From assembly GCA_017470115.1 (NCBI GenBank), contig JAFUEZ010000008.1:104-64103 (forward strand): a DNA stretch of 64,000 nt. The letters run 5' to 3'. Below the pieces are notes generated by a model. That model was not told the DNA's origin and did no database searches. It worked only from the letters and a program-made list of their open reading frames with translations. Source of the stretch: Bacilli bacterium. Its GTDB lineage: Bacteria; Bacillota_I; Bacilli_A; RFN20; CAG-826. Positions within the stretch are counted from its first letter, which is position 1. Each line of letters starts with the position of its first letter. Made by a program: the position numbers and the translations under genes. Positions 7,584-28,867 of the stretch are shown in pieces.

Positions 7584-10115
7584 ATGAAGAAAATTGTTAA
7601 TTGCAGTTTATGTCTTGCCGCATCAGCGCTACTGACCTCTATTGCACCTTCTGTAAATCGCCTTGCAGAAGATGCTTGGAAAAGCGGTGACTTATATGGA
7701 GCTGCAAAAATTACCTGCACTAAAGCAAGAGATGCAGATGTTGGTAACGTTACAGAAATTAATTTAAATGGTAGCGGAAATGGCAGTTTAGCTGGAAATG
7801 GTATCTATTTCAGAATCAAAAACTATACTGCAGTTGATACACCACTTACTGTTAAACTTAATTCGACAAATGGCGCTGGTATTGCTCCAAAAACAAATGT
7901 TAAGCAAACCTATTTCGATGCAGATGGCAATCCAGTTGATGGAATAGCCGCTCGTAGTTGGGGAAATTATATGATGTTACCAGCCAGTTTTGATGGTTTC
8001 ATCTATATGAATTATGCAGAACAAATGACAAAGATTTTTGGCGATGAAGATTTTAATCCATCAAGCATCTGGAGAATTTATATCGAATATAGTGGTAGTT
8101 ATGATTCATATGCAAGTTTTGCAATTGGCGATATTTACACCGACCAAGTTCAATCACTTGATACATCAGCAATAACAGAAGAAAACTTCTCAAATTATTT
8201 CATAAATACTGCCAGTGAGTTCCAATCTGTAACTCAAAATCCTAGAGCAGAAGAGTATGTTCCAGAAGGCGACTTAAAAGGCGGTGTTAAATGTGAATTA
8301 ACCGGTTATGGTGGATTCATGGTTAAATTTGGTGCTGAAATTAATTTAAGCGATGGATTATATGTTCGTATGAAAAATGATTTAGATAGAGAGATCTATC
8401 CTATGATCCATGTTGCTAGTGATTGGTTCACATATAGAGTTGTAACTGCTCAAAATCAAATAATTAATCTTTATAATAATGATGGCACTTTTAAGTCAAC
8501 TGTTACTGTTAATGAGTGGGGATATTTTGCTTTACCTGCTAGTTTTGATGGTTTCATTGGCTTTAAAGATTACACTGGTTTTAAAAATGACTGGGGTGAA
8601 GGCTTCGATCCTGCAAAAGTTGTAGCAGTCTATTTTGAAGCTGATTCAGTTAATTTCTCAGTTGGTGATATTTTCTCTCCTACAGTAAAAGCTTTTGATG
8701 GTTCAGAAAAATATGAAACCGACTTTGCTAATTTCACTGAAACATGGACACCAGATGTAATTAAGTTGACTCAACTTGAAGGTTATAAAGAACCAGAAGT
8801 AGTTTTATTTGATTACACACAAGTTACTTATGGTGGCTCACTTGAAGGTGGTGTCACAATTAAAGCTTCAAAAAATGAAGACTCTTCAGTATTTTCAAGC
8901 GCACTAATAAATTTTGCTGAGAAGATTGATTTAAGTGCTGGAGAAGCAGTTGCTATTAACTTTAAAGGTGTTGGCTCATATGCTTTCCAAATGGAATTTA
9001 TTGATGGAAATGGAGCAAAAGCAATTCTTCCTGCAGCAAGTGATAGTGCCGTAAAACCTATTTGGATGATTAAAGATGGCGTTGCTACAGCTATGAACCA
9101 TACAACTGGTGATCCAAATACAATTCATACTGTTGAAGGTGAAGGCGTTATAGTTTTAGAAAAAGGATTCTTAGCTTTAAGTAGTGCAGAATTTGATTGG
9201 AGTAAGATCGCTCAAATTAAAGTTAACGTTCATACTTTCTATGATAATGGCATTAACATTACACTTGGTGATATTGGAACAGTTAAACAAGATGGGCTTA
9301 TTCATACAGTTGTTTATAAAGCAAGTGAAGTTACAGCATGGTCAAGCGTTTATGAGGCTGGAGATGAATTTATTAAAGTTTCTAAATTCTTTACACCTAA
9401 ACCATCTCAATGGATTGGTGATGTTAAATTAATCGATTCACTCAATTATAGAAGTGATGAAGAATTAAAAGAAAACGTTACATATGATATTGGCGACAAT
9501 GCATGTTCATATAAAAAAGAAAATGATGGCATGTTCGTCCATATTGGACCATATGAAACTGGACATACTTATGGCAATTATATGTGTCTAGGTATGTTTG
9601 ATAAAGGCGTAACAACCGATAGAAAAGTTGCTTATAAAGAAGTTGAAGGCAAAAAAGAATACGCAAAAGGTATTACTTTCTACGCTGAAAATAGATCAGT
9701 TAAAGAAATTGGTCTAACATTACAATTTGATGAAAAGATTCCTGGTAAAGGACATACTGAAAGATGGTGTGTCACTGGATATCCTGCAATGTATTATGCT
9801 TGGGATGTTGAAACAAATGCTGAATATATGTTCTATGCAAAATCAGACCAAGTTCAAATCCCTGTTGGATTCAAAGGTTATATTAGAGTTCCATTTACAT
9901 CATATTCAGTACCTGCATGGAATGCTGGATTAGAAGGCGTTGATGAAGTTCTTGATTTAGATAATTTCAGTGGAAACTTCTTCTTAACAAGTGATAATAC
10001 AAGATTCGAAGATCTTGAATACTTCATTAAAAACGTTGGTCTATACTTCAATGAAACTGCTAAAGGTAGTGTTTTCAATAGTGAACATACTATCAAAGCA
10101 AACATGGGTCTTTAA
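7584..10115 (+). CDS. Secreted 843-aa protein with three tandem ~250-aa repeats; probable carbohydrate-binding or glycan-active protein of unknown family
   Basis: Type I signal peptide, no lipobox. Internal repeats are marked by LPASFDGFI (occurs twice) and by recurring xxGDIx module endings (AIGDIY, SVGDIF, TLGDIG). Strong RBS AAGGAGG. Confidence 0.55.
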   Translation: MKKIVNCSLCLAASALLTSIAPSVNRLAEDAWKSGDLYGAAKITCTKARDADVGNVTEINLNGSGNGSLAGNGIYFRIKNYTAVDTPLTVKLNSTNGAGIAPKTNVKQTYFDADGNPVDGIAARSWGNYMMLPASFDGFIYMNYAEQMTKIFGDEDFNPSSIWRIYIEYSGSYDSYASFAIGDIYTDQVQSLDTSAITEENFSNYFINTASEFQSVTQNPRAEEYVPEGDLKGGVKCELTGYGGFMVKFGAEINLSDGLYVRMKNDLDREIYPMIHVASDWFTYRVVTAQNQIINLYNNDGTFKSTVTVNEWGYFALPASFDGFIGFKDYTGFKNDWGEGFDPAKVVAVYFEADSVNFSVGDIFSPTVKAFDGSEKYETDFANFTETWTPDVIKLTQLEGYKEPEVVLFDYTQVTYGGSLEGGVTIKASKNEDSSVFSSALINFAEKIDLSAGEAVAINFKGVGSYAFQMEFIDGNGAKAILPAASDSAVKPIWMIKDGVATAMNHTTGDPNTIHTVEGEGVIVLEKGFLALSSAEFDWSKIAQIKVNVHTFYDNGINITLGDIGTVKQDGLIHTVVYKASEVTAWSSVYEAGDEFIKVSKFFTPKPSQWIGDVKLIDSLNYRSDEELKENVTYDIGDNACSYKKENDGMFVHIGPYETGHTYGNYMCLGMFDKGVTTDRKVAYKEVEGKKEYAKGITFYAENRSVKEIGLTLQFDEKIPGKGHTERWCVTGYPAMYYAWDVETNAEYMFYAKSDQVQIPVGFKGYIRVPFTSYSVPAWNAGLEGVDEVLDLDNFSGNFFLTSDNTRFEDLEYFIKNVGLYFNETAKGSVFNSEHTIKANMGL

Positions 10116-10128
10116 GGAGGGCTAAACA

Positions 10129-11307
10129 ATGAGAAAAACAAATATTTTATTAGCAGCATGTGGTTTATTACTTTCTAGTTGTTTACTTTGTGCTTGTGGC
10201 TCAAATGAACCAGTAAATCCTGATAATCCTGATAATCCTGATAACCCAGATAACCCAGATACACCTGATACAACTGAAGTTCCTATTTATGAACAAGGCG
10301 ATAAAAAAGCTGTTAATGGTGCAGGATTACTCTTCTTTGAAACGATGGGTTTCAATACAAAAGATGCTTCTATTTTTGAAGAAAACAATGAAAGATATAT
10401 TGTTTATGCTGGTCAAGAAGAAGCAAAAGGTGCTCAAGTATTTGCCGCACGTAAAGGCACATTAAAAGATGGTGCTTGGGTATATGGTGAAAAGAAAGTA
10501 ATCTTAAAGGGTGCAACTGGGGATAGTGCATGGGATAAATTCATTTATCAACCATCAGTTGTAAAAGGTACATTCAAATACAATACAAAAGATTACAAGT
10601 ATTTAATGGCCTACCAAGGAAATAGTGACGGAAGTAACTTCAATAATAATATTGGTTTAGCCGTTTCAAATGATATTCTTGGTTCATGGGAAAGAGTTGG
10701 TACAGCTCCACTAATTAAAAACCCTGAAATTTATGAAGCTTCATATGGATTTGGTTCACCAATTCTTTTAAACGTCGATCAAAAAGGTTCACTTTTAATC
10801 GCTTATTCATTTGGTGAAACTTTACTTTCAGGTGAAAGAGTTAAATCACTAAACGCTCTTGATTTAAATTCACCAGTTCTTGAAAGTGGTTATGCTGAAT
10901 TACCAACTGCAGGATTACTCGGTCGTGATGATGGAATTATTACAAATGCTGGATTAGCATTAGGCAAAAATAATGATTTCTATATTGCAAACGATGGAAT
11001 GACTTCAAGTAACGCACCTGGTAATGCTACATCATTTGAAGTTGCAAAAGCAGGTTCAGGTCTAATTAGTGATGTTTCAACAACATGGGCACAAATTAAA
11101 AAAGTAACTGGAAATGATACAATCGATCCAAAAAATACTGAATCCTTAGGTTGGGATGAATTATGTTCTGCAGATTTTGTAACTGATGCTTATGGAAGAG
11201 TTGATGATACAAAAGAAAAACTCGAAATAGTTTATACTTCATTTAATGAAGGTGTAGGCGATGCAGCTTATAGTGGACAACTTTGTTCAATCGAGGTCGC
11301 AAAATAA
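10129..11307 (+). CDS. Lipoprotein with Pro/Asp-rich stalk and beta-propeller glycoside-hydrolase-like body (paralog 1)
   Basis: Lipobox LLCACG. (PDN)4(PDT)2 linker. Shares YQPSVVKGTFKYNTKDYKYLMAYQG-type blocks with the other two paralogs. The DPS/GPW-type signatures are reminiscent of the GH43/GH32 propeller clan. Family assignment is tentative. Confidence 0.5.
   Translation: MRKTNILLAACGLLLSSCLLCACGSNEPVNPDNPDNPDNPDNPDTPDTTEVPIYEQGDKKAVNGAGLLFFETMGFNTKDASIFEENNERYIVYAGQEEAKGAQVFAARKGTLKDGAWVYGEKKVILKGATGDSAWDKFIYQPSVVKGTFKYNTKDYKYLMAYQGNSDGSNFNNNIGLAVSNDILGSWERVGTAPLIKNPEIYEASYGFGSPILLNVDQKGSLLIAYSFGETLLSGERVKSLNALDLNSPVLESGYAELPTAGLLGRDDGIITNAGLALGKNNDFYIANDGMTSSNAPGNATSFEVAKAGSGLISDVSTTWAQIKKVTGNDTIDPKNTESLGWDELCSADFVTDAYGRVDDTKEKLEIVYTSFNEGVGDAAYSGQLCSIEVAK
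10219..10272 (+). repeat. Six tandem 9-nt units (cctgataat-like) encoding the (PDN)4(PDT)2 linker
   Basis: Tandem units were read directly in the sequence at 10219-10272. Confidence 0.8.
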
Positions 11308-12551
11308 TGAAAAATAAATACTTAGCTTTAATAAGTTTAGTATTTTTAACTGCTTGTACATCTGGAGGTGGTTCAACATCTCCAGATGAACCAACTGATC
11401 CAGACACTCCTTACGTTGATCCAGATACTCCTCAAGAAAAACCTGTATCTTATATTCCTGATGTAGGGGAAGTTAGGTTACTTTTTTCAACCGGAGAAGC
11501 TGGAAAAACTCAAATTTATAATTATTGTCCTTCAATATTTATTGAAAATAATGAAGAGCATGTTTATTTTTGTACAAACAAAGATGAAGGAAATGTTACA
11601 GATTATGTTGGATATCGAAAAGGCACAATTTCTGACAATAAAATCAATTTCCCTCTTCAAAGTGATTTTGTTTTAAGTCATGGAACTAGTTCGACTAGCT
11701 GGGATTATCGTCACGCTTGCGATCCTAGTGTCATTAAAGGTGAATTTAAATTTCATGGGGAAACTTATAATTATTTAATGGCATATTTAGGATGTGTTCC
11801 TAGTGATTGTACTTTAAATGAAACAGGTATTGCTGTTAGTAAATCTCCACAAGGTCCATGGATTAAATGTGATTTTAAAGAAGATGGTGTTACCAAAATT
11901 AATCCAATAGTTCCTTATAAAGATTTCCAAGTTGGTGAAAATAATTGGGGAACAGGTCAACCTTCATTATTCTCAGTTGATAAAAAAGGAAGAGTAATTT
12001 TACTTACGACAGTTGGCGCTCAAAATGGCACATTTACCAATGCAAGAGAATATGATTTTTCTGATATTGATAATTTTAAACTCATTAGAGAGAAGAATAA
12101 TCTCCCAATAGATGGTATTAAGGGAACAAGAACTGGAGCCTCATTTATTAATAATGCTGACTTTGGTTATGATTATCAAAAAAGAAGAGTTATTTTAGCT
12201 AAACCAAGGCAATTCTTTGGAACAGATGGAAAATCTCCAGATTTTATTGCTGATACGATAGATGTTTATTATATCGACGATACTGAAGGTAGTGGAGTTG
12301 GTGATATTCTTTTTGCAGGCAATAATACTGTTAAAATCTGGAAATCAATCGGTTCAATAGATTCTAAACTAACTGGATTTTTAAGAAACCATAATTGTGG
12401 ATTGATTACTGATGCTTATGGTGGAATTGATTCAAGTCTTAATTTAGGAGTCGCATTCACCAGAAGTGATGAAGCTAGCGGAAATAACTGGACTTATCTT
12501 TCAACTTATAGAATTTATGCTACTGCATTTAATTTCCCTAAAAATTATTAA
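11307..12551 (+). CDS. Lipoprotein, beta-propeller glycoside-hydrolase-like (paralog 2)
   Basis: The ATG at 11307 overlaps the upstream stop (taATG) and has GAGG 10 nt upstream. Lipobox LTACTSGG. P/D/T-rich linker. Blocks NYCPSIFIENNEEHVYFCTN and ACDPSVIKGEFKFHGETYNYLMAYLGC are shared with the 14149 gene. Confidence 0.5.
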   Translation: MKNKYLALISLVFLTACTSGGGSTSPDEPTDPDTPYVDPDTPQEKPVSYIPDVGEVRLLFSTGEAGKTQIYNYCPSIFIENNEEHVYFCTNKDEGNVTDYVGYRKGTISDNKINFPLQSDFVLSHGTSSTSWDYRHACDPSVIKGEFKFHGETYNYLMAYLGCVPSDCTLNETGIAVSKSPQGPWIKCDFKEDGVTKINPIVPYKDFQVGENNWGTGQPSLFSVDKKGRVILLTTVGAQNGTFTNAREYDFSDIDNFKLIREKNNLPIDGIKGTRTGASFINNADFGYDYQKRRVILAKPRQFFGTDGKSPDFIADTIDVYYIDDTEGSGVGDILFAGNNTVKIWKSIGSIDSKLTGFLRNHNCGLITDAYGGIDSSLNLGVAFTRSDEASGNNWTYLSTYRIYATAFNFPKNY

Positions 12552-15540: not shown

Positions 15541-15885
15541 ATGCCTAAATATTGTTCAAATTGTGGTGCAGAATTACATGAAAACGATTCATTCTGTGCA
15601 AGTTGTGGTGCAAAGATTGATAATAATCAAATATATATGGGAGATAGTAAGAAAAAAGAGGAAGGCAAGAAAACTCTAAGAACGGTTGCTTTAGTTTTTA
15701 TGATTATTAATACAGTAATTTTTGGTTTTGCACTTATTCCTTTAGCATGGATGATTCCTATGTGTATTCATGTAAATGAAAAACTTAAAACTGGTGAAGA
15801 AATAAGTATTGGCTTTAAAATTTGTACATTACTTTTCTGCAGTACGATTGCAGGAATTCTTTTACTTGTTGATGATTTAAATTAA
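15541..15885 (+). CDS. Zinc-ribbon membrane protein (114 aa)
   Basis: N-terminal CxxC-x14-CxxC (CSNCGAELHENDSFCASCGAKI) followed by two or three hydrophobic helices. RBS AAAGGAGGG. Confidence 0.6.
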   Translation: MPKYCSNCGAELHENDSFCASCGAKIDNNQIYMGDSKKKEEGKKTLRTVALVFMIINTVIFGFALIPLAWMIPMCIHVNEKLKTGEEISIGFKICTLLFCSTIAGILLLVDDLN

Positions 15886-15910
15886 TTTAAAATTTATCAA
15901 ATTTAAAGAA

Positions 15911-15936
15911 AAAAGCCTCGTTTTAGAGGCTTTTTG
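15911..15936. terminator. Bidirectional intrinsic terminator between convergent genes
   Basis: Hairpin AAGCCTC-gtttta-GAGGCTT flanked by an A-run and a T-run. Confidence 0.7.
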
Positions 15937-15951
15937 CTTTAAATTGAGAGT

Positions 15952-16656
15952 TTATTGTATTTTTGTATCGCAATAATTTTGATACGCAATAACAACATTT
16001 TTCTTTTTAGAGCGAGATATTTGAAGCTTTTCAGTATTGTTCATTATTGCGTATCCATTTTCAATTGAAGTTATGTATTTCATATTTACGTAATAGCATT
16101 TATTAATCAAAACAAAAGAAGGAGAAGCAATTTCATCCATTAACTTTTTAAGTGAAGTATAAGTTGTATATGTTTTGGTGATTGTATGAATTTGACATAG
16201 ATGAATTGATATTTCAATGAATGTAATATTTTTGATCTCTATATCAAAGACATCTTTAGAGCTCTTAATCGAAATCTTTCGATCTTCACAAAATTGCTTA
16301 TATTTAAACAATCGTTTTAATGTATCTTCGATTAAGTTATAAGGTAGAGTTATTGGAAGATAATCAAAAGCAGATACTTTATATCCTTCAATTGCATAAG
16401 TTTTTGCATCAGCTAAAAAGATAATTGGTGTTTCTAGATTCTTTTCTCTAATCTTATGAGCTAAATCAAATGCTTTTTGATCGTTGTTAACAGGAATAAA
16501 AACTATATCATCATTTTTTAGTTCATTTAGATTGGCAGGAAGTTGCTTCTTTAACTCAAAACTAAAATTAAAGGCATTTTCTTCCTGAAATTTATTAATG
16601 GAATTTTTTAATGAGTCTAAAAAATTAATGTCGTTAGTTATCAGGTAAATTCGCAT
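15952..16656 (-). CDS. LytTR-family DNA-binding regulator with aspartate-less (pseudo-)receiver domain
   Basis: The C-terminal LytTR domain and the N-terminal receiver-like domain are clearly paralogous to the response regulator at 23691-24404. The phospho-acceptor position reads FIPVNN instead of FLDIKL, and the acidic pocket reads ITND instead of VEDD. Confidence 0.7.
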   Translation of the reverse strand: MRIYLITNDINFLDSLKNSINKFQEENAFNFSFELKKQLPANLNELKNDDIVFIPVNNDQKAFDLAHKIREKNLETPIIFLADAKTYAIEGYKVSAFDYLPITLPYNLIEDTLKRLFKYKQFCEDRKISIKSSKDVFDIEIKNITFIEISIHLCQIHTITKTYTTYTSLKKLMDEIASPSFVLINKCYYVNMKYITSIENGYAIMNNTEKLQISRSKKKNVVIAYQNYCDTKIQ

Positions 16657-16700
16657 GTTTTTATTATATATATTAATTTTTCTTGAAAAATTTAAACGGA

Positions 16701-16730
16701 TTACCGATGGTGATGTGAATTTGACCGTTC
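16701..16730. promoter_or_regulatory. Candidate LytTR operator: imperfect 9-bp direct repeats TTACCGATG / TGACCGTTC separated by 12 bp
   Basis: The repeats sit in the divergent intergenic region between the orphan LytTR gene and LRR-lipoprotein/GH3 cassette 1. The 21-nt periodicity is typical of LytTR sites. A second, weaker copy (ATACCGATA-N12-TGACATTTT) lies at 16777-16806. Confidence 0.4.
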
Positions 16731-16918
16731 GTGAAAAAATAGAGATAATTATGCAAATTTAAATACAAAAGTTGCAATACCGATAATGATTTAAATTTGA
16801 CATTTTGTGATTGATTTTGATATCTCTCTTTATTTTGTAAATATAATAACGACGTTAAAGCCGCTCTTTATGAGGGCGAACGTTTTAATCGAATAATAAA
16901 AATATTAAGGAGGGAATT

Positions 16919-17647
16919 ATGAGATTAACAACACGCAGTGCACTTTTAGGTGTCGCTTTATTAATGGCTTCAGTTACAAGTTGTGGTGGTAATAACGCAG
17001 CAAAAGAAATCGATTATGCTGAAGGTTTAACACCATCAAAAGGATTAGCTTTCAAACTTAATTCAGAAATCGAAGGTGGTTTCTCATTTGGAAAATACGT
17101 TGAAGGTGAAGAAGATTATTATGTTTGTACAGGTGTTGGTACATGTGAAGATGAATATATTGTCGTTCCATCAACATATGAAGGCAAACCAGTTAAAGCA
17201 TTAGGTGATCAAGCTTTCACATCAAAATCAGCTCCAAAGATGAAAGGTATTACACTTCCAAATTCAGTTCAAGCAATTGGTTCACTTTGTTTCAGAAACT
17301 GGGATGGTTCATATGAATACATTCACGCTAACGGAATTAGAGGTTATGGTGATGGTTCAGTCACAGCTACATTAGAAGATACATTTGTCGCTTCTCAAAA
17401 AACAGTTTACATTGCAAGTATGACTTTCTTCCATGGTAAAGAAGGTGCTTCAACAAAAGTTTGGTTACCAAAGACAGTTCAAACAATCGATGCAAGTGTT
17501 TTCCTTGATACCTCATATAAGAAAGTTTTATTTGAAGGTTCAGAAGAAGATTGGAAGAAGATTACATTCTCAGCAGGTGAATTCGATGGCGAAGGCGTTG
17601 AAATCGAATATAACGTTGCTTATCCAGGAATCCAATCAAAGAAATAG
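16919..17647 (+). CDS. Leucine-rich-repeat (BspA-type) surface lipoprotein
   Basis: Lipobox VTSCGG. LRR-like segments. The C-terminal EEDWKKITFSAGEFDG tail is shared with the paralog at 24699. Confidence 0.6.
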   Translation: MRLTTRSALLGVALLMASVTSCGGNNAAKEIDYAEGLTPSKGLAFKLNSEIEGGFSFGKYVEGEEDYYVCTGVGTCEDEYIVVPSTYEGKPVKALGDQAFTSKSAPKMKGITLPNSVQAIGSLCFRNWDGSYEYIHANGIRGYGDGSVTATLEDTFVASQKTVYIASMTFFHGKEGASTKVWLPKTVQTIDASVFLDTSYKKVLFEGSEEDWKKITFSAGEFDGEGVEIEYNVAYPGIQSKK

Positions 17648-17662
17648 AAAACTAAACTTATC

Positions 17663-17696
17663 GAGCAATGAGCAGTTTTGTTCATTGCTTTTTTTA
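17663..17696 (+). terminator. Intrinsic terminator between the LRR lipoprotein gene and the GH3 gene (cassette 1)
   Basis: Hairpin GAGCAATGA-loop-TCATTGCTT followed by TTTTTTT. Confidence 0.65.
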
Positions 17697-17711
17697 TAGG
17701 AGAGATAATAA

Positions 17712-20681
17712 ATGAAGATAAAGAAAAATCTATTATTAGGTGTTACAGCTTCATTAGCTTTCTTACTTACACTCATGTCAGTTGCTTCCGCTTATTCTTT
17801 AGAATGGGAAGGAAAAATCAACGAGACTTTAGGAATTGAAGGATCATCAACTTCAGATGAAGGAGATACAGATACTCAATATTTTAAGAGTGAATTTGGT
17901 GATGGAACTATTAGTGAAGCAAATCAAGCCTTATTAGTTGCTGAAAGTAAAAAGCAATGTTATAACGAAGTCGCTGAAGGTGCAACACTTTTACGTAATC
18001 GTCATAATGCATTGCCACTTGCTCAAACAGAAAGAAAGATTTCTATATTTGGTAATAATGCTACTAATTTTGTCTATTTACCAAGTGGCGGCGGCGAAGG
18101 AAATAGTGTTAGTGCTGATAATAGTGCAAATTTTAAAGCATGTTTTGATGAAGCCGGTTTCCAAGTTAATCCAACGCTTTGGAATGCTTATGTAAATAGT
18201 GGAGTTAAACGTGCTTATAGTGGAACAAATGCTAGCGAAGATGATATTGGTGAAGTACCTTTAAGTTTCTATACAGATCAAATCAAGTCTTCTTTTGATG
18301 AATATAGTGATGCAGCTATTATTGTCATCACTCGTGAATCAGGTGAAGGTGCTGATATGTTCATGAATTATAGAGATGGAAAGAGCAAATTAGCACTTAC
18401 AGATAATGAACGTGACATGATTAATATGGTCACAAGTAGTGGAAAATTTAGCAAAACCATCGTATTAATTAATACAACTAATCAACTTGAACTTGATTGG
18501 GTAGAAGAATATAATATCGATTCAGTTTTGTGGGTTGGCTCAGTTGGTCAATGGGGTGCTTTAGCTATACCTGATTTATTAACAGGTAAAGTAAATCCTA
18601 GCGGAAGAACTGTTGATACATGGGCTGCAAATTCACTTTCTGCTCCAGCATGTGTTAACGCAGGAACAAATACTCCTCAATATTTAAATGTTGATGAAAT
18701 TGGACAATCTATTAAAGATTCAGTTAATACATATGCTTATATGCAAACACAAGTTGAATCAATTTATGTTGGATATAGATATTATGAAACACGTTATGAA
18801 GATGTCATCTTAAATCAAGGTAATGCAAATTCAACTAAAGGTGCAATTCAAGGCTCAACAAATTGGGATTATGCAAAAGAAATGTGTTATCCATTTGGAC
18901 ATGGTTTAAGTTATTCAACATTTTCAGAAACTCTTGAAAGCGTGACTGAAGATAGTGAAACAGATACTTTAAAAGTAACTGTTAAAGTTAAAAATACAGG
19001 AACTACAGCAGGAAAGCACTCAGTCTTAGTTTATGCACAAACTCCTTATGGTACATATGAAAAAGAACATAAGGTTGAAAAGAGCGCTATTCAACTTGTT
19101 CAATATGGAAAAACTAAACTTTTAGAGCCAAATGAAGAAGAAACTCTTGAACTTAAAGTAGATAAATATTTACTTGCATCTTATGACCAATATGAAGCAA
19201 AAACTTATATTAGATCAGCTGGAAATTATTATTTAGCTCTTGGAAATAATATTCATGATGCACTAAATAATATTTTAGCCAAAAAAGGTGCCTCTAATTT
19301 AGTTGATGAAGAAGCAAATCCAGTTACAGGAGATACTTCCCTAGTTTATGAATGGGCTGAAACATTTGATAAAGAAAAATATAGTGTCACTGATTATACA
19401 GGTGCAAAAGTAACAAATGTATTTGAAGAATGTGATTTAAATCATTTCTTTGATACTCCTGTTGTTACATATTTATCAAGATCTGATTGGGACGCTACTT
19501 ATCCTGTTAGTCAAACTAGAGTTGCAGCTACAACAGAAATGATTCGTCTTTTAAAAGGTGACTTATATAAAACACCTGCTGATGCTCCTAAATTCACTGA
19601 TTTAAAGATTGGTGTAAATAAAGGCATCAAAATGATTCAACTTAAAGATAAAGAATATGATGATCCTATGCGGGAAGAATACTTAGCTCAATATTCTCTT
19701 GATGATCTTGCTGCAATTACAGCAGAAGCATCAGGTACAAAACCAATTGCTGATTTCGGCGTTCCACATTTAGGATTCGTTGATGGACCAATGGGTGTTT
19801 GTTCAAAAATGCAATTTGGTTCAGTTAAATGTACAACTTTCCCATCAGTTCCAATTTTAACAGCTGCTTATAATAAAGATTTGCTTAAAAGACGTGGTGA
19901 ACTCATGGGTGAAGAAGCAGTGTTTGCTAAAAAACATGTAGTTAATGGCCCTGGATGTAATTTACATAGAACTCCATTCAATGGAAGAACATGTATTTAT
20001 TATTCAGAAGATGCTAACTTAACATATTTAGCTGTTGAAGCTGAAAATGCTGGTATGTTATCAAAAGGAGTAACAACAGCTGTTAAACACTTTGTTGGAA
20101 ATGATCAAGAATTCATGAGAACTGGTGTTTCAGTATTCTTTGAAGAACAAGGTATGAGAGAAATTGCTATGAGAGCATTTGAATCATCCTTAAATTCAAC
20201 TGATAACACTTTAGGAAGTATGATGTCCTTTAATAGACTTGGTTGTGTTTCTGATAATAACGCAAGTTATGCAAAAAAATTAACCAGAAACGAATGGGGC
20301 TTCCATGGTTTCTATCAAACTGATGCTGCTCAACATTATTCAAGTTATTTTGTTACTGAACTTGATTCAGGTACAGATATTTTCTCAACTGATACAACAG
20401 GTCGTGGTGGAGTAGCTATAGCAAAATATATTAAAGATAATAACGATGGTTATCTTTATAATGAATTAAAAGAAACAGTTCATCATATTCATTATATGAT
20501 GTGTAAAGGTCATGCAATGAATGGCTTATCATCAACTGCAAAAATCGTTATTTCAACTCCATGGTGGCAAGTTGCTGAACTTTCAGTGATTATTGCTCTT
20601 GGTGTATTAACACTTGGTGGCGCTGCTCTTTTAGCTTTAAATGAATTCAAAGCTATTAAAGGTGCAAAAGTAGAAGGATAA
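17712..20681 (+). CDS. Glycoside hydrolase family 3 beta-glucosidase-like enzyme with circularly permuted domain order and C-terminal transmembrane anchor (989 aa)
   Basis: Signal peptide. The GH3 C-domain start ATLLRNRHNALPL and FGHGLSYSTF lie near residue 395. KHFVGNDQEF and the GFHGFYQTDAA nucleophile region lie near residues 790-850. The C-terminus is hydrophobic: IIALGVLTLGGAALLAL. Confidence 0.8.
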   Translation: MKIKKNLLLGVTASLAFLLTLMSVASAYSLEWEGKINETLGIEGSSTSDEGDTDTQYFKSEFGDGTISEANQALLVAESKKQCYNEVAEGATLLRNRHNALPLAQTERKISIFGNNATNFVYLPSGGGEGNSVSADNSANFKACFDEAGFQVNPTLWNAYVNSGVKRAYSGTNASEDDIGEVPLSFYTDQIKSSFDEYSDAAIIVITRESGEGADMFMNYRDGKSKLALTDNERDMINMVTSSGKFSKTIVLINTTNQLELDWVEEYNIDSVLWVGSVGQWGALAIPDLLTGKVNPSGRTVDTWAANSLSAPACVNAGTNTPQYLNVDEIGQSIKDSVNTYAYMQTQVESIYVGYRYYETRYEDVILNQGNANSTKGAIQGSTNWDYAKEMCYPFGHGLSYSTFSETLESVTEDSETDTLKVTVKVKNTGTTAGKHSVLVYAQTPYGTYEKEHKVEKSAIQLVQYGKTKLLEPNEEETLELKVDKYLLASYDQYEAKTYIRSAGNYYLALGNNIHDALNNILAKKGASNLVDEEANPVTGDTSLVYEWAETFDKEKYSVTDYTGAKVTNVFEECDLNHFFDTPVVTYLSRSDWDATYPVSQTRVAATTEMIRLLKGDLYKTPADAPKFTDLKIGVNKGIKMIQLKDKEYDDPMREEYLAQYSLDDLAAITAEASGTKPIADFGVPHLGFVDGPMGVCSKMQFGSVKCTTFPSVPILTAAYNKDLLKRRGELMGEEAVFAKKHVVNGPGCNLHRTPFNGRTCIYYSEDANLTYLAVEAENAGMLSKGVTTAVKHFVGNDQEFMRTGVSVFFEEQGMREIAMRAFESSLNSTDNTLGSMMSFNRLGCVSDNNASYAKKLTRNEWGFHGFYQTDAAQHYSSYFVTELDSGTDIFSTDTTGRGGVAIAKYIKDNNDGYLYNELKETVHHIHYMMCKGHAMNGLSSTAKIVISTPWWQVAELSVIIALGVLTLGGAALLALNEFKAIKGAKVEG

Positions 20682-20693
20682 GGAGGAAAAATT

Positions 20694-21119
20694 ATGAAAT
20701 TTAATGAAGTTTTTAAAGCTCACAAATTTGCTTTAATTTTCCAAGGTGTTTCTTTCTTACTTGGCTTAGTTGCCTTTCTATATACAGCAAATGTTTTAAA
20801 TTTGATGAAGCTTGTTCCTGAACAATATACTCCATCATTTATATTCATTATTGTTACTTTACTCTTGCAAGTTGGCTATGTAGTAATGTTAATTAAAAAC
20901 ATTAAATTTGCTGAATACTTAAAATTTTTAATCGTTATTTTTGGAGCACTTGGCTTATCTTATTTTGTAACAGGATCAATGCTTTCAATTATTGATAAAA
21001 TCTATAATATCGTCATGTGGGGTGATATTACTCAATTCCCAGCAATTATGGTTTTTGGAGCATTTTTACTTGCTGCAGAAGGATTAAATATTGCTACCTG
21101 CTTCTTAAAAAACGAGTAA
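20694..21119 (+). CDS. Small four-helix membrane protein co-encoded with GH3 (141 aa)
   Basis: Four hydrophobic helices. RBS AAGGAGG. Same relative position as the 28409 gene in the paralogous cassette. Confidence 0.55.
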   Translation: MKFNEVFKAHKFALIFQGVSFLLGLVAFLYTANVLNLMKLVPEQYTPSFIFIIVTLLLQVGYVVMLIKNIKFAEYLKFLIVIFGALGLSYFVTGSMLSIIDKIYNIVMWGDITQFPAIMVFGAFLLAAEGLNIATCFLKNE

Positions 21120-21278: not shown

Positions 21279-22418
21279 ATGAAGATCAAAAATATAATTT
21301 TTAGTTTACTAGCTATTTTTAGTTTAGTAAGTTGTGCAGATAAAGTAGAACCAATCATAGAAGGATATAGATATCCTGATGATGGACTTCCAAAAGAGAT
21401 TGATCCAGAAACTATAGTTTTAAAAGAAGGTTGCACACATACAAAACTTCAAATGGCTTATTTAGAGTCAACTTATAAATCGATTGAAAAATACGCTAAT
21501 GGGCAAAAAGAAAATTCAATTCCTAATCCAATAAAGATTGATTATTCATCTTTGAATTTATCAAGCGTAGATAACTATAAAATTGAATTTTCTACATCAG
21601 CAACATTTGAAAATTCATATGTAGATAATTTATATGATTTAAAAACTTATGATTTTTATAACGGATTAACTGATACAAAATATTATTGGCAAATTAAGGA
21701 TAATGAAGGCAATATTTTAGATTTAAAAGGAGACTTTAAAACATGTGAGCATCTTCCTAGAATGTTAAAAGTTGAAGGTGTCACCAACGTAAGAGATTTA
21801 GGCGGATATAAAACTAAAGATAATAAGAAAATAAAACAAGGGCTCCTTTATAGAGGTGGAAGATTAAATGATTCTTATACTTATGAGCCAAAACTTGGAA
21901 TCAGTGAAAAAGGAATTGAAGTTTTAACTAAACAACTTGGAGTAAAGTCTGAACTCGATTTAAGAAGACTTGAAGAAGATGATAAAAATGCTCAAGAAGC
22001 AGGGCATAGAAACGAAATTCAAATACCAGGAATTTCTCTTAAATCAGTGTCTTTAGATTATTCAATTAAAAGTGAATTACAAAAAGAATTATTTGTTGAA
22101 ATATTTGACTATTTAGCAGATGAAAATAATTATCCATTATATTTCCATTGCAATATCGGAACCGATAGAACAGGGTTGATCGCTTTTTGGCTTTTAAATT
22201 TAGTTGGAGTAGAAGAAACAACAATTTATAAAGAATATTGTATGAGTGCATTAGCTAATATTGGTCAACCAAGAACTCATAAGAGTTTACAAAAAGAGTG
22301 GCTTGCTCTTTATGAATATGATCATGAAGATTTTACTAAAGCCACTGAACTATATTTAAAAGATTTAGGAATAAAAGAAGAAACTTTAAGTAAAATAAAA
22401 TCAATTATTCTTGAGTAG
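21279..22418 (+). CDS. Lipoprotein with protein-tyrosine-phosphatase-like CX5R active site
   Basis: Lipobox LVSCAD. FHCNIGTDRTGLIAF matches the HCxxGxxR(T/S) P-loop of PTP/dual-specificity/PTP-like phytase enzymes. RBS GAGGT. Confidence 0.6.
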   Translation: MKIKNIIFSLLAIFSLVSCADKVEPIIEGYRYPDDGLPKEIDPETIVLKEGCTHTKLQMAYLESTYKSIEKYANGQKENSIPNPIKIDYSSLNLSSVDNYKIEFSTSATFENSYVDNLYDLKTYDFYNGLTDTKYYWQIKDNEGNILDLKGDFKTCEHLPRMLKVEGVTNVRDLGGYKTKDNKKIKQGLLYRGGRLNDSYTYEPKLGISEKGIEVLTKQLGVKSELDLRRLEEDDKNAQEAGHRNEIQIPGISLKSVSLDYSIKSELQKELFVEIFDYLADENNYPLYFHCNIGTDRTGLIAFWLLNLVGVEETTIYKEYCMSALANIGQPRTHKSLQKEWLALYEYDHEDFTKATELYLKDLGIKEETLSKIKSIILE

Positions 22419-23694
22419 AAGAAGTTTCATCTTTTAAAGGAAGCATAATTGTTGCTTGAAATACATTTTGTTTTTGAGAAAGAAGCAATTCTCCATCATA
22501 TTTTTCAAGTGTCTTTTTGACGTTTCTTATGCCAAAACCATGATTGTATTTATCTTTCTTAGTCGTTTTAGGCAAGTCGTTTTTAAATTCAATTTGATGG
22601 TCTAAATAATTTTCAATCAAGATAAAAACAATATTCTTTTCTTTTTTAGAGTGAATTGTGATGTAGCGCTTATCTTGAGGAACTAGTTTTTGTGATTCGA
22701 TTGCATTATCAAGTAAATTTCCAAAAATAATATAAATATCAATAGAATCCATGAATGATAAGTCACTTAAATTTGAAGAAATGATGAATTTAATTTTGTA
22801 ATTTTCACAAACAACACTTTTTTCAGATAGAATTGAATCAATAACTGAATTACCAGTATAGATTAATTTTTCAAAATCTACTGTACCTTCTTTTAAGGTT
22901 GCAGCAATCTTTTTTCTTTCTTCATTATCGCCATTTTCAATTGCGTTTACGTAATACTTTAAATCGTGCATTCTTCTATCAATAGCATCAAATGATGCTA
23001 ATAAGAATTCATATTGTTCGTTTTGCTTCACAATAGAAGCTTCATACATTTTTTGAGAAACATAAGTTTTATTTGTATAGATATTAATAAATAGAAGTGT
23101 CAAACAAAGTAAAGTATCGTAAATGATTTCAATTAATGCATAACTTCTATCAAAAGAAAGGAATATTACAGCTAATAAACCAGCTACAGCAAATAAAACA
23201 ACAAAATAAGACTTATAACTAATTTCATCTAAGCTTGAATTTGATAATTTTAAAATCATAGTTATTATGAATATTTGTAAGGCTAAAATAGCATAATCAA
23301 CAAGTTTACCAATATAATAAATCCAATCAAACGAAAGAGCTTCGTTTAATCCTGTTTCTTCAAATAAAATCATTCTTAAATTGTAGCCAATATGTTGAAG
23401 TAAAGCAGAAGTAAGAACGATAATAATCGTTGTTTTTAGATTTGTATTATAGCTAAATAAAATGACTCCAACAACAAGAGAGTATAAAAGAAATACTTGT
23501 GGAGAAAATTTAAAAACAGCTAATTCAACTCTTTGTGGAATAAAATATATGATTGCCATTCCTGCAATTAAAGGAAGGAAAAATCTTAATAAAAAATATT
23601 TCTTTCTAGATGTTTTTCTTAAAAGAAATACTGAAGGAATTACATAAGTTGCCGTTAAAGAGATTAACGAAATTAACGATTTTACAGGTGTCAT
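22405..23694 (-). CDS. Membrane sensor histidine kinase, AgrC/ComD-like (HPK10, GHKL ATPase domain)
   Basis: About six N-terminal transmembrane helices. H-box RRMHDLKYYVNAI. N-box GNLLDNAIES. G-box HGFGIRNV. The start overlaps the stop of the response regulator gene. Confidence 0.8.
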   Translation of the reverse strand: MTPVKSLISLISLTATYVIPSVFLLRKTSRKKYFLLRFFLPLIAGMAIIYFIPQRVELAVFKFSPQVFLLYSLVVGVILFSYNTNLKTTIIIVLTSALLQHIGYNLRMILFEETGLNEALSFDWIYYIGKLVDYAILALQIFIITMILKLSNSSLDEISYKSYFVVLFAVAGLLAVIFLSFDRSYALIEIIYDTLLCLTLLFINIYTNKTYVSQKMYEASIVKQNEQYEFLLASFDAIDRRMHDLKYYVNAIENGDNEERKKIAATLKEGTVDFEKLIYTGNSVIDSILSEKSVVCENYKIKFIISSNLSDLSFMDSIDIYIIFGNLLDNAIESQKLVPQDKRYITIHSKKEKNIVFILIENYLDHQIEFKNDLPKTTKKDKYNHGFGIRNVKKTLEKYDGELLLSQKQNVFQATIMLPLKDETSSTQE

Positions 23695-24404
23695 TCTCTA
23701 AACCCATTCCATGAAGCAACTTGAATGTAGAAGCTCTTTTTAAAAGATCTTCCTAAAGGAAAAGATGTATCATCATCTAAAATGATTGATTTGCCTGACC
23801 ATGATTTTAAATATGCGATATTAATTAGTGTAGACCCATTAACTTTTGCAAAACCTTGAGAGAGATAATTTGCTTCAAGTTGTTTAAGAGGGATTTGTTT
23901 TTTATATTCATTTCCATCATTAGTTTTTAAGTAGCAATAATGGCCAGAAGATTCTATATAAACAACATCTTTAAGAGCAATTGAAATATTATTGCTATCT
24001 TGTTTAACAGCTATTTTAATTGAATTATTTCTTGAACGTTTTTCAATTATGAAATCGAGTTTACGTTTGAGTACTTTAGGATCGTATGGCTTTAAAACAA
24101 ATGCAGAAGCACCAATTTCATATCCATCAATTGCATATTTTTCTAAAGCAGTGATTAAAATAATATCTGTATCAGTGTTTATAGTCCTAAATTTTTTAGC
24201 AATGGAAATTCCATTTTCAAAAGGAAGTTTAATGTCTAAAAAAACAATATCGAAATTCATATATGACTTTTCTAAAAATAGTAAGCCATCTTCAAATTTA
24301 GAAATATTGATCTTTTGTTTGATATCTTTTTGATATTCAAGTAAAAAATTCTTTAAATCATTTAAGAAATTCTTATCATCTTCGACTATAGCTATGTTAA
24401 TCAT
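23691..24404 (-). CDS. Response regulator, LytTR family (AgrA/ComE-like)
   Basis: Receiver domain with IVEDD and the phospho-acceptor in FLDIKLP. C-terminal LytTR DNA-binding domain. Lies upstream of the histidine kinase in the same operon. Confidence 0.85.
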   Translation of the reverse strand: MINIAIVEDDKNFLNDLKNFLLEYQKDIKQKINISKFEDGLLFLEKSYMNFDIVFLDIKLPFENGISIAKKFRTINTDTDIILITALEKYAIDGYEIGASAFVLKPYDPKVLKRKLDFIIEKRSRNNSIKIAVKQDSNNISIALKDVVYIESSGHYCYLKTNDGNEYKKQIPLKQLEANYLSQGFAKVNGSTLINIAYLKSWSGKSIILDDDTSFPLGRSFKKSFYIQVASWNGFRE

Positions 24405-24465
24405 ATTTATATATTAATAATATTAATATCAACTCGCAAAAATCTATAAAAAATTTATTCATATT

Positions 24466-24495
24466 TTGCATGTTTTAAGCAAAAAATTGCATTTA
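24466..24495. promoter_or_regulatory. Candidate LytTR operator: 9-bp direct repeats TTGCATGTT / TTGCATTTA separated by 12 bp
   Basis: The repeats are in the divergent intergenic region between the response regulator gene and cassette 2, about 60-90 nt upstream of the response regulator start. Confidence 0.4.
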
Positions 24496-24698
24496 TGTAG
24501 ATCTAAAAAAAGAAAAATATCGATTGTTATCGAATCTCTATTTTTAAGGATATACAAATAATGCATGTATTTAAATAAGTTGCTCAGTTTTAATAAAAAA
24601 TCAGCAATAAATCTTTTAAAGTTCATAAAATGAAGCCATAAATACTAAAAATGACCATAATTAGCGTTTTTAGACAATAAAAATTTTGGAGGGAATTT

Positions 24699-25271
24699 AT
24701 GAAATTAAAATTTTTATTAAGTGCAGGTGTTCTTTTGGCATCAGTTGCAGCTTTAGCTTCATGTGGTGGCACAAAGGATAATCACGTTGCTGGATCAGAA
24801 GGTTTAGTTTATACCTTATCAGATGATGAAGATCATTACATTTTCACAAGTATCGGAACATGCACAGATGCGACAGTCACTGTTGGAAACTGGTACAATA
24901 ATCTTCCTGTTACTGAATTTGGTGAAGCTCCTTTAGGTGATGGAACAACATTAAAGAAATTAATCGTTTCTGAAGGTATCACAAAATTAGCTTTCAGAGC
25001 ATGCAGAAGTTTCTCAGTTGAAAACGTTGTTCTTCCAAACGGAATCGCAGAATTACCAATGGGTACATTTGTCCGTTGTGATAAATTAACCGAAATCACA
25101 TTAGGAACAGGTTTAACAAAATTTAATGAAGGTGGTGCTTTAGCATCAACAGCAATTAAAAAGATTAACTTCCGTGGTACAGAAGAAGAATGGAAGAAAA
25201 TCGAAATCACAAACGAAGGCGATATTGCAATTATTGCAGCAGCTCAAGTCGTTTATAATTTTAAAGGTTAA
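24699..25271 (+). CDS. Leucine-rich-repeat (BspA-type) surface lipoprotein (paralog)
   Basis: Lipobox LASCGG. LRR segments. C-terminal EEEWKKIEITNEG tail. The RBS/5' region GGAGGGAATTtATG is nearly identical to that of the 16919 gene. Confidence 0.6.
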   Translation: MKLKFLLSAGVLLASVAALASCGGTKDNHVAGSEGLVYTLSDDEDHYIFTSIGTCTDATVTVGNWYNNLPVTEFGEAPLGDGTTLKKLIVSEGITKLAFRACRSFSVENVVLPNGIAELPMGTFVRCDKLTEITLGTGLTKFNEGGALASTAIKKINFRGTEEEWKKIEITNEGDIAIIAAAQVVYNFKG

Positions 25272-25284
25272 TCTAAAATTGTTT

Positions 25285-25326
25285 CGGCCCTTAGTTCGTC
25301 TAAGGGCCTCTTTATATTTAAAGAGG
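25285..25326 (+). promoter_or_regulatory. Structured leader: terminator hairpin overlapping an SD-sequestering hairpin upstream of the GH3 gene (cassette 2)
   Basis: The first hairpin, GGCCCTTAG-ttcgtc-CTAAGGGCC plus a T-rich tract, shares its last two nt with a second hairpin, CCTCTTTA-tatt-TAAAGAGG. The second hairpin contains the GAGG of the ribosome-binding site. Confidence 0.5.
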
Positions 25327-25333
25327 GCAAATT

Positions 25334-28300: not shown

Positions 28301-28393
28301 GCATTTATTGGAATTGATATTGGAGCTGGTTTAGCAGCTTTAGCAGCAGGATTCTTCTTTGTTAAAGGCGTGCTTGCCAAAAAAGAAGGTTAA
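25334..28393 (+). CDS. Glycoside hydrolase family 3, domain-permuted, C-terminal membrane anchor (1019 aa; paralog of 17712 gene)
   Basis: Signal peptide. TVLLKNENNCLPL and FGYGLSYTTF in the N-terminal half. KHYAFND and GFHGLNSTDAAS in the C-terminal half. Hydrophobic C-terminus IGIDIGAGLAALAAGFFFV. Confidence 0.8.
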   Translation: MKNNLMRGLFATSLFVLAFSLVGNLSTNAYRQDVNRFLGTSNYKITIDGEVSGGDIDSLYPYKSDYSSTKELVQAFADVGERMGEEGTVLLKNENNCLPLDANHKKVTLLGTIAYNPYQGGQMGSGYQKNVGTDADTVSFVNALKERGFEVNKDVQTVFKGGNQHAAPAASLQAQFQNKELSVSELDSRSANWKDSFANYNTAIVVFGRNGGENASYLPGLDGVSEADKALHQSDPLGLNDNERDILKVATDAKKAGKFDKVIVILNTSSTMEIKEIKENEDVDAMMMVGVPGGYGFRGVVDVMMGADNLSPSGHLTDTFVTKNSLSPAAQNYSLYKFTNYDEINAQGSEYAGKLINSYLVEAEGIYTGYYYYETRYEDAVRNRNNADSVKGSVSGAWKYENEVVYPFGYGLSYTTFEQKLDSVEVDLAAKKVRASITVKNTGSYSGKSVAELYVHAPYIDGGLEKASIRLIDFGKTKLLAPNESEVVNLEADLQDVATWDSSCDNGDGTKGSYVLDAGKYYFALGNGAHEALNNVLVADGVDSSLLTGSFTPNCVQSYVVDAKDTTSLRESFSGTKLENQLEDADLNYYQPGTVTELSRSNWDLTFPKTYDNIAADAEMLKVLKGDITDISVDDGWPEVKWDQKNGLTLLDLKDVPFEDPRWGQLIEQLSFDEALKLVAFGGVVTQAVDSIGSPQLLQNDGPNGINNNALGHNVDAFSTMHDIDPYYFDSSDKNFLYKGGCMALGVTIAQTFNKELSYEQGKIYGNYAIWAHVPIHWSCGLNTHRSPYNARNHEYYSEDGVLGGYLGANMIRGGREKGFIISPKHYAFNDTELNRSGVAPFMSEQKARQIELRSFQIAIEKGEALGIMTSMSRIGATPINAHEGVMYNVLRKEWGFHGLNSTDAASNKYYFSAKECAINCVTMTTQNKVDYSNGWEYFHPENLSKAKKLQARLQEGMKCQYYAAVHSNAINGYSKNMKVEKIMTWYDMAFIGIDIGAGLAALAAGFFFVKGVLAKKEG

Positions 28394-28408
28394 GAGGAGG
28401 TAAAAGTT

Positions 28409-28867
28409 ATGAAAAAATTATTAGCTAGTCTTAACGTTCAAACTTGTTTGTTATTATCAACTTTTGTTTTCACTTTGGTCGCTCTTGTTTCTTATATTAT
28501 TAATATAAGCACAGAGTATTTCCAAGCGTATGCACCTTCAGGAGCTTATTTTGCCTTTTTAATCTTAAGTCTTGTTTTTGCAGCAGGATTTATCGTATTA
28601 AAAATATTAAAAGAAAATAAGATCTTCAAAATTGCTGAAAATGTTATTCTTGCAGTTTTACCAGGCTTATTAATGGCAGCTGTTATGTTTCTTTTCCTTG
28701 ATAGAATCTATTATGTTTTAGTTATCTTTACTTATGAAAAGAATGAGACAAATATGGCCGCTCTTATGCCAGCTTTAGTTTCGTTTGCTGCTGCAGCTTT
28801 AGCGTCCATTATTGCTTTAGCAAGTTCATTTATGAAGGATAAAGAAATAGGACAAGTTAAAGAATAA
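28409..28867 (+). CDS. Small polytopic membrane protein co-encoded with GH3 (152 aa)
   Basis: Four hydrophobic helices. RBS AGAGGAGG. Positional counterpart of the 20694 gene. Confidence 0.55.
   Translation: MKKLLASLNVQTCLLLSTFVFTLVALVSYIINISTEYFQAYAPSGAYFAFLILSLVFAAGFIVLKILKENKIFKIAENVILAVLPGLLMAAVMFLFLDRIYYVLVIFTYEKNETNMAALMPALVSFAAAALASIIALASSFMKDKEIGQVKE

Follow-up and report, generated by a model that had tools for sequence, protein, structure and literature searches.

A LytTR regulator with an aspartate-less pseudo-receiver, encoded without an adjacent kinase beside an LRR-GH3 operon

How does a response regulator go on working once it has lost the aspartate that a histidine kinase would phosphorylate, and which genes does it then serve? 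The question is raised by a gene at 15952..16656 on the reverse strand (stop codon included) of a 64,000-nucleotide stretch of contig JAFUEZ010000008.1, from an uncultured gut-type Bacilli metagenome-assembled genome (MAG); this whole 64-kb stretch is called the window below. According to its open reading frame (ORF), Pfam, AlphaFold2 (AF2) and Foldseek, the 234-aa product is an atypical response regulator in which a pseudo-receiver precedes a LytTR DNA-binding domain. An earlier note, made by a model from the letters alone, had presented it as an orphan that cannot be phosphorylated in the usual way and may compete with a kinase-controlled paralog at 23691-24404(-). The pseudo-receiver, the missing neighbouring kinase and the loss of phosphorylation all stand, whereas the competition finds no support. 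Nor does the regulator appear to be a free-floating orphan: most likely it acts locally, on the divergently transcribed operon that encodes an LRR lipoprotein and a GH3 glycosidase. Judging from sequence, we give a probability of roughly 0.55 to the reading that it controls this operon independently of phosphorylation, probably as an activator, and possibly regulates itself.

The argument begins at the phospho-acceptor site. The ORF lies where it had been placed, the peptide blocks quoted for its alignment with the paralog are all present (NFLDSLKNS/NFLNDLKNF, AIEGYKVSAFDYLPITLPYN/AIDGYEIGASAFVLKPYDP, DIVFIPVNND/DIVFLDIKLP and ITND/VEDD), and BLASTP aligns the two proteins over their full length at 26% identity (E 4e-17). 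Three independent alignments put Pro55, encoded by CCT at 16492-16494, in the acceptor position: BLASTP pairs DIVFLD of the paralog, which contains the acceptor Asp, with DIVFIP; a MAFFT alignment of 157 sequences has Asp in that column in 146 of its 148 database representatives; and phmmer pairs YDIIFLDVN of the solved S. aureus LytR receiver 6m8o with DDIVFIPVN (E 1.4e-4). In the AF2 model strand β3 ends at residue 54, which places Pro55 exactly at the acceptor site. A conserved Asp displaced by an indel, the weak spot that the earlier note had seen in its own claim, was looked for, and no indel restores an Asp in any alignment; Asp59 and Asp49/Asp50 were considered as shifted acceptors and rejected, alignments and model agreeing on Pro55 at the end of β3 and the conserved Thr and Lys being gone as well. 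Pro55 is not a sequencing error either, because CCT is at least two substitutions away from GAT/GAC and Pro55 is kept in 7 of the 9 other members of the 90% cluster, drawn from several metagenomes; the remaining two are a C-terminal fragment that lacks the region and a sequence with a local frameshift across it. One variant (protein P0007, at 2176-2874 of locus L006) has FFFFIYL in place of IPVNNDQ, precisely where the acceptor used to be, after which the frame is restored; this reflects either a compensating pair of frameshifts or a misassembled T-rich run.

The rest of the active site has largely gone too. The acidic pair after β1 now reads Thr7-Asn8, with Asp9 as the sole survivor of the change from VEDD to ITND; the Thr after β4 is replaced by Ala82 (codon 16411-16413) and the Lys after β5 by Ile102 (codon 16351-16353), residues 99-113 containing no Lys at all. 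Four of the five receiver active-site residues are lost. Because Thr, Lys and most of the acidic pocket are missing besides the Asp, conventional phosphorylation of the product is, by its residues, very unlikely. The Pfam Response_reg profile, which scores the paralog at 59.1 bits over a full receiver followed by LytTR, gives this protein 14.6 bits, over aa 63-100 only and below the cut-off of 30.2. Among the 149 nearest representatives two others have lost the Asp, independently (P0033 has Ser, P0127 has Asn), and both have Ala at the Thr position. A redox switch of the RitR kind through the linker residue Cys123 was considered and rejected; variants P0002 and P0003 have Tyr there.

Measured against the REC family (PF00072), then, the acceptor Asp, the acidic pair, Thr and Lys and a score at the Pfam gathering level are absent, whereas the fold is present. 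The AF2 model, built on a 119-sequence alignment, reaches a predicted local distance difference test score (pLDDT) of 90.7, with about 80-94 in the part that has receiver topology, a complete (βα)5 succession (E2-5, H9-26, E32-35, E50-54, H59-71, E77-81, H86-92, E97-100, H105-123); a β-rich LytTR domain follows at the C-terminal side. Foldseek finds full-length ComE (4cbv) as the best match in the PDB (E 5.7e-15), with a TM-score of 0.74 to the receiver domains of ComE and LytR and of 0.85, at a root-mean-square deviation of 1.6 Å, to the LytTR domain of AgrA (4xqn), and phmmer yields full-length alignments to REC-LytTR proteins. Alignments, AF2 topology, Foldseek, substitution ratios and the codon check together delimit a pseudo-receiver of aa 1-123 (16288..16656, reverse strand). 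The LytTR domain with its C-terminal helix takes up aa 126-234 (15955..16281, reverse strand); Pfam LytTR (PF04397) scores 50.3 bits at aa 136-221 against a cut-off of 22.6, and the recognition loop is Ile184-Asn185-Lys186. A recent minireview defines an aspartate-less receiver (ALR) as having receiver homology and fold without the D site, and a pseudo-receiver as lacking any of the five conserved residues (PMC12632262). With the fold present and D, T, K and most of DD absent, the N-terminal half is, on the evidence of the model and alignments, a genuine receiver homologue and an aspartate-less pseudo-receiver in that sense.

This domain has not been left to drift. The family-invariant residues of α4 and the α4-β5 region (A88, G91, Y92, V94, A96 and D98) are all kept, and it is this region that forms the receiver dimer interface of ComE (PMC4005675). 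In Nei-Gojobori pairwise comparisons of six variant loci (L001-L007), the ratio of non-synonymous to synonymous divergence (dN/dS) of the pseudo-receiver is 0.03-0.31 at dS up to 0.29, and the LytTR half gives similar values (dS up to 0.29-0.41 for both domains). Full-length variants recovered from several metagenomes keep the ORF uninterrupted, P0007 with its local, frame-restoring 7-aa scramble being the exception. Because of these ratios and the retained α4/α4-β5 residues, the pseudo-receiver can be taken as maintained under purifying selection: by its sequence it kept its interaction surface and lost its phosphorylation chemistry.

What the regulator controls is suggested by its surroundings. 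It is transcribed divergently from three genes on the forward strand: that for a BspA-type LRR lipoprotein (16919..17647; Pfam LRR_5), first in the presumed target operon; that for a 989-aa GH3 glycosidase with a C-terminal membrane anchor (17712..20681; Pfam Glyco_hydro_3_C, Fn3-like and Glyco_hydro_3); and that for a 141-aa small membrane protein without a Pfam match, the last gene of the module (20694..21119). The regulator's own homologue searches reached no close relative: a word-indexed search returned only its own 90% cluster, an exhaustive phmmer search no relative above 34% identity, and a scan of genome contigs with the protein no match. Orthologues were therefore sought through synteny of the GH3 gene, which in the same kind of scan gave four loci only. 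Six orthologous modules were found (L008, L009, L010, L012/13, L015 and L016), and all six have the same layout on one strand: a REC+LytTR regulator, a HATPase_c_5 kinase, the LRR protein, the GH3 enzyme and the small membrane protein. Their GH3 orthologues share 56-70% identity, each with a response regulator and kinase upstream; the LRR gene of the window shares 70% identity with the gene that opens the module in L008 and in L009, the small membrane protein is 41-49% identical to its L008, L009 and L010 counterparts, and the three products compare with those of L008 at 70%, 70% and 49%. From this shared layout it follows that the ancestral state of the module is, on comparative evidence, a canonical LytTR two-component system. 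Set against the six modules found, the lineage of the window alone would have no kinase and an inverted, aspartate-less regulator.

The absence of the kinase is clear within the window. It holds two LytTR regulators and one kinase (22405-23694), which is paired with the paralog, and tblastn with six kinases detects no kinase remnant near 15952-16656; a kinase pseudogene beside the regulator was rejected on this ground. Directly 3' of the regulator's stop codon lies a bidirectional hairpin resembling an intrinsic terminator (15910..15935; 10-bp stem, a T run on both strands), which separates it from a convergent gene for a zinc-ribbon membrane protein and because of which the regulator gene appears to be monocistronic. 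The orphan status that had been proposed thus has support from the terminator, the sole kinase and the empty tblastn search alike, and within these 64 kb no histidine kinase gene shares an operon with the regulator or stands next to it.

The module itself is recurrent in uncultured Firmicutes-type MAGs. It occurs twice in the window (16919-21119 and 24699-28867) and at L008, L009, L010, L012, L013, L015 and L016, with more distant versions at L017 and L019, and it combines a LytTR regulator, an AgrC-like HATPase_c_5 kinase, a BspA-LRR lipoprotein, a GH3 enzyme of about 1000 aa, in which C-domain, Fn3 and N-domain precede a C-terminal membrane anchor, and a membrane protein of about 140 aa. We know of no description of LytTR two-component control over anchored GH3 glycosidases.

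The kinase is gone from this locus; candidate DNA sites of the module's control remain. The 262-bp region between regulator and operon contains a 33-nt direct repeat (16702-16734 and 16778-16810) with 26 of 33 matches, a number reached in none of 300 Markov-1 simulations (mean 21.0, standard deviation 1.1). Both copies contain a pair of 11-nt half-sites spaced by 21 bp, which gives two candidate operator sites on the forward strand: site 1 at 16705..16736 (CGATGGTGATG and CGTTCGTGAAA) and site 2 at 16781..16812 (CGATAATGATT and ATTTTGTGATT), the latter nearer to the operon promoter. In the orthologous modules the operators lie in the kinase-LRR spacer and likewise have two half-sites, nGTTCrTGTTG, with a 21-bp period. 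Five modules carry half-sites of the window's type at this period (TTCGTGTTG, TTGATGTTG, GTTCGTGAC, TTCATGTTG, TTCAAGTTG and TTAATGTTG); their first and second half-sites read TTTTCGTGTTG and AGTTCGTGTTG in L008, ATTTCGTGTTG and CGTTGATGTTG in L009, CGTTCGTGACG and CTTTCATG(T/C)TG in L012 and L016, and AGTTCAAGTTG and AGTTAATGTTG in L015. The half-sites of the window are oriented towards the operon as in these modules, and CCGTTCGTGA is identical to half-sites of L012 and L016. Among the variants both sites together vary in 3 of 66 columns, against 34 of 200 elsewhere in the spacer (Fisher p 0.0125). A LytTR domain is expected to bind paired direct repeats, separated by some two helical turns, that lie upstream of the promoter they serve; the 21-bp candidates are duplicated, conserved and homologous to the module operators, with weak discrimination by a weight matrix.

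Site 2 stands in a suggestive position relative to the operon. A putative promoter, read from the sequence at 16817..16847 on the forward strand, has TTGATA at 16817-16822, a 19-nt spacer and TATAAT at 16842-16847; its -10 box is TAnAAT in all variants, the operon transcript is predicted to begin near 16854 on this strand, and a simple consensus scan, which demands a spacer of 16-18 nt, does not list it. The CTCTCTTTATTTT spacer of site 2 and its distance of 28-29 nt from the -10 box resemble the arrangement in L008, and the site is centred at about -60 of this putative weak promoter. The best sigma-70-like match in the region is a different one, TTGACC-17-GATAAT at 16721-16749 (+; 10/12). It faces the operon, shares part of its sequence with the second half-site of site 1, and may be an additional promoter that the regulator either occludes or activates.

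Site 1 lies 46-80 bp upstream of the ATG of the regulator. This ATG has no Shine-Dalgarno sequence, and a TATAAT box 6 nt upstream of it suggests that the regulator mRNA is leaderless, with a predicted start at 16656 on the reverse strand; given the position of site 1 near this start, the possibly leaderless transcript may be subject to autoregulation. A Shine-Dalgarno sequence is in fact absent before both regulator genes of the window (16657-16672 and 24405-24420), while neighbouring genes carry GGAGGG. Rfam gives no regulatory RNA in the 5' leader, its sole match in the window being the tRNA at 55791.

Together these features lead us to propose the following circuit. In the ancestor, a canonical LytTR regulator and an AgrC-like kinase would have driven the operon through two nGTTCrTGTTG half-sites 21 bp apart. 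In the lineage of the window the kinase gene would then have been lost and the regulator gene inverted, while the operator was kept and duplicated. The regulator would bind the repeats as a dimer without phosphorylation, dimerising through the conserved α4/α4-β5 surface of its pseudo-receiver, and, bound around -60, it would activate a promoter whose -35 box is weak and whose spacer is 19 nt long, in the manner of AgrA at agr P2/P3. The other operator copy, about 60 bp from the start codon of the regulator, may add autoregulation, and output would be set by the abundance of the regulator, or by some input to the pseudo-receiver, instead of by a phosphorelay. The geometry of the candidate operator is comparable to that at agr: AgrA sites are centred near -60 at promoters with spacers of 18-20 nt (PMC4227749), and here too one finds direct repeats of 21-bp period in a divergent intergenic region, a centre near -60 and an over-long promoter spacer.

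Several points weigh against this reading. Binding of the regulator to the sites, its dimerisation and oligomeric state, activation as opposed to repression, and autoregulation are all steps that we infer, and with 64 kb of the genome in view a regulator encoded elsewhere could be the one that uses the operator. The variants behind both the conservation of the sites and the dN/dS ratios all belong to one species-level cluster, which leaves these comparisons with low statistical power. A weight matrix built solely from eight half-sites of other organisms puts site 1 in first and site 2 in 96th place among the 127,938 dimer positions scored in the window, but it separates them poorly from background (site 1 scores 14.8 against 14.5 for the runner-up, other spacings score up to 19.4, and site 2 only 3.8) and was used as supporting evidence only; the internal 21-bp repeat, taken alone, is no better than a 30-bp offset. 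Finally, the regulator shares only 23-29% identity with the syntenic regulators, compared with 36-52% among these themselves, and in a ranking by phmmer score of 155 sequences (the top 150 of the database and the five syntenic regulators) that of L012 comes 31st among the top database hits, while those of L008, L009, L010 and L015 fall below the 150th place, at ranks 151-154. Because of this low identity and low ranking, it is possible that another LytTR lineage took the place of the original regulator.

Of the competing explanations, the one that survives best accepts the regulator's role and makes the pseudo-receiver responsive to a signal, which we regard as a minor but real possibility. 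A ligand, such as a glycan breakdown product, might occupy the remodelled pocket, or a partner protein might bind, much as membrane inhibitors do in LytTR systems. The partner could be the 114-aa product of the convergent gene at 15541-15885(+), which has predicted membrane segments and, at its N-terminus, a zinc ribbon. Purifying selection on the pseudo-receiver does imply some function, with the kinase lost the operon would have no input if none had been newly acquired, and JadR1, Rem-MirA and FrzS are characterised atypical regulators under ligand or partner control (PMC12632262). Selection of this kind is, however, equally expected for a pure dimerisation scaffold, and no ligand-binding signature was found in the regulator. 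The zinc-ribbon gene is a conserved neighbour in all variant contigs, but these form a single species-level cluster, so that the shared synteny says little, and the gene is convergent, sits behind the bidirectional terminator and lies outside the module in other lineages. A bolder version would have the whole glycan-degradation two-component module rewired into a kinase-free circuit in which the receiver has become the sensor, for a sugar or glycan product or for a partner, and in which the duplicated operator puts a surface glycosidase under a switch that activates itself and may be bistable. We consider this unlikely; if true, the mechanism of a LytTR-type pseudo-receiver would for the first time be in hand, and the canonical kinase-dependent orthologues could serve as natural controls.

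A second explanation concerns where the regulator came from. The original regulator and kinase may have been deleted together and an unrelated LytTR regulator, already aspartate-less, inserted in inverted orientation; in that case the ancestral operator either survives as a relic or serves a regulator encoded elsewhere. The inverted gene, the lack of any kinase remnant by tblastn and the fact that many database proteins resemble the regulator as much as the syntenic ones do all speak for such a non-orthologous replacement, and the identities of the separate domains show no special closeness to the syntenic regulators either. The receiver is unusually divergent, with a mean identity to the representatives of 24% compared with 37% among the representatives themselves, whereas the LytTR half is ordinarily divergent (30% vs 32%). 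Yet low identity is no bar to orthology, because the LytTR domains of clearly syntenic regulators (L010 vs L008/L009) are themselves only 25-29% identical. The operator shows no decay: it has been duplicated, is conserved among the variants and has its better copy beside the regulator. The regulator also has four rare residues in common with those of L008 and L009 (F12, I156, I184 and K186, two of them within the rare INK loop), a number reached by about 3% of random control pairs. Because operator and recognition loop are conserved, descent in situ with strong acceleration is somewhat favoured on the sequences at hand, and outright replacement seems unlikely.

The third explanation starts from the proposal of the earlier note that the regulator competes with its paralog at shared or related promoters; in a wider form, the regulator would act there as an anti-activator or poison the paralog by forming heterodimers. 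The setting invites the idea: both proteins are of the REC-LytTR type, in one genome and 7 kb apart, and stand beside paralogous operons, the paralog and the HATPase_c_5 kinase that follows it (22405-23694) being divergent from a second, distantly related trio (by comparison within the window, LRR at E 9e-12 and GH3 at 30% identity). LytTR-only anti-activators are known as well, for example in the gallocin system of S. gallolyticus, as passages of PMC8545106 describe, and the α4-β5 segments of the two proteins are similar. That similarity, however, is family-wide, and the DNA-binding side points the other way. The LytTR domains of the two proteins are 26% identical. Their recognition loops, at a position that we take to be DNA-contacting in AgrA, are INK here and VNG in the paralog. 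Aligned with the family consensus CNxCY, INK is found in only 4 of 149 representatives; the regulators of L008, L009 and L015 have it, those of L012 and L016 have INR, and that of L010 has CNV. The intergenic repeats differ in parallel. Those at 16705-16812 are of the GTTCGTG/GATGGTG type and those at 24464-24590 of the TTTTGCAT type, both with a 21-bp period; the latter comprise TTTTGCATG/AATTGCATT at 24464-24496 and about 24558-24590, and L010 has repeats of a similar type before its LRR gene (AAATTGCC/ATTTTGCC, L010 4040-4075). A GTTCGTG-type weight matrix has no high-scoring match in 24405-24698, and the operator beside the regulator matches those of its own operon's orthologues, not that of the paralog. 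Because operator type and loop seem to co-vary across modules, with the regulator grouping with its own module, competition at shared promoters is argued against, and the proposal has become improbable.

That the gene is merely a decaying remnant of the lost system, as its divergent receiver and lost catalytic residues might suggest, is hardly tenable beside an ORF intact in full-length variants other than the scrambled P0007, low dN/dS ratios in both domains, a high-confidence fold and retained invariant α4-β5 and LytTR residues.

Taken as a phosphorylation-independent regulator of its neighbouring operon, the protein can be placed among known systems. It is a new and rather degenerate example of a recognised class and not a new class, because aspartate-less REC-LytTR proteins were already counted in a 2015 census (117 ALRs among 4007; Maule et al. 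2015, PMC4395418, S2 Table). Like RitR, HP1043, ChxR and JadR1 (PMC4395418, PMC12632262) it combines a receiver fold without the acceptor Asp with further active-site losses in an orphan gene, and DNA binding independent of phosphorylation is to be expected, with the dimerisation surface conserved. It differs from the characterised examples, which are of the OmpR, NarL or other types, in being of the LytTR type; it also differs in having Pro at the acceptor position, where Glu, Asn, Ser, Gly and Ala are the common replacements listed, and in a receiver so degenerate that both Pfam (at 14.6 bits) and the NCBI annotation miss it. The text of the 2025 minireview, which covers 20 characterised bacterial atypical regulators, mentions neither 'Lyt' nor 'AgrA', and it calls the switching of bacterial pseudo-receivers a major unknown (PMC12632262).

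Among LytTR proteins, AgrA, ComE and LytR have the same two-domain architecture and fold; what is absent here is the acceptor Asp, the Thr and the Lys, the cognate kinase and any peptide-pheromone genes, and the genes presumably controlled form a glycosidase operon. The best-known orphan among LytTR regulators, CdtR of Clostridioides difficile, likewise belongs to the family without having an adjacent kinase and is encoded beside the genes that it controls, as is presumed here; it keeps a predicted phospho-acceptor, Asp61, which according to passages of PMC6699598 was tested by mutagenesis, where the present protein has Pro55. The LytTR regulatory systems HdrRM and BrsRM of Streptococcus mutans offer another parallel, with LytTR control that dispenses with a phosphorelay and a small membrane-protein gene nearby. 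As far as is known, their regulators comprise little beyond the LytTR domain, have no receiver and are co-transcribed with a membrane inhibitor. The gene at 15952-16656 does not belong to that group, for it encodes a 123-aa pseudo-receiver, is monocistronic and has its membrane-protein neighbour (15541-15885) in convergent orientation behind a terminator.

The value of the locus lies in this setting. It amounts to a natural comparison, in which one operon and its operator stand under a canonical regulator-kinase pair in six lineages and beside a kinase-free, aspartate-less regulator in this one, and from it one might learn which changes allow a receiver to do without phosphorylation; in other respects it would be an ordinary case of lineage-specific regulatory rewiring. 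There is also a consequence for annotation. Both NCBI and the precomputed Pfam annotation record the product as LytTR-only, and because strongly degenerate receivers score below the Pfam threshold, ALR censuses based on Pfam are likely to undercount.

Two further observations concern other parts of the window. Three consecutive ORFs of 843, 392 and 422 aa at 7584-12551(+) have no Pfam match at E 1e-5 and lie inside a sugar-utilisation cluster that also encodes a MalK-like ATPase, a LacI regulator, a solute-binding protein, a PfkB kinase and a GH43-like lipoprotein. The gene at 21279-22418(+), which lies between the two GH3 modules, has a product of 379 aa that combines a lipoprotein-like signal peptide with a Y_phosphatase3 domain of the tyrosine phosphatase family.

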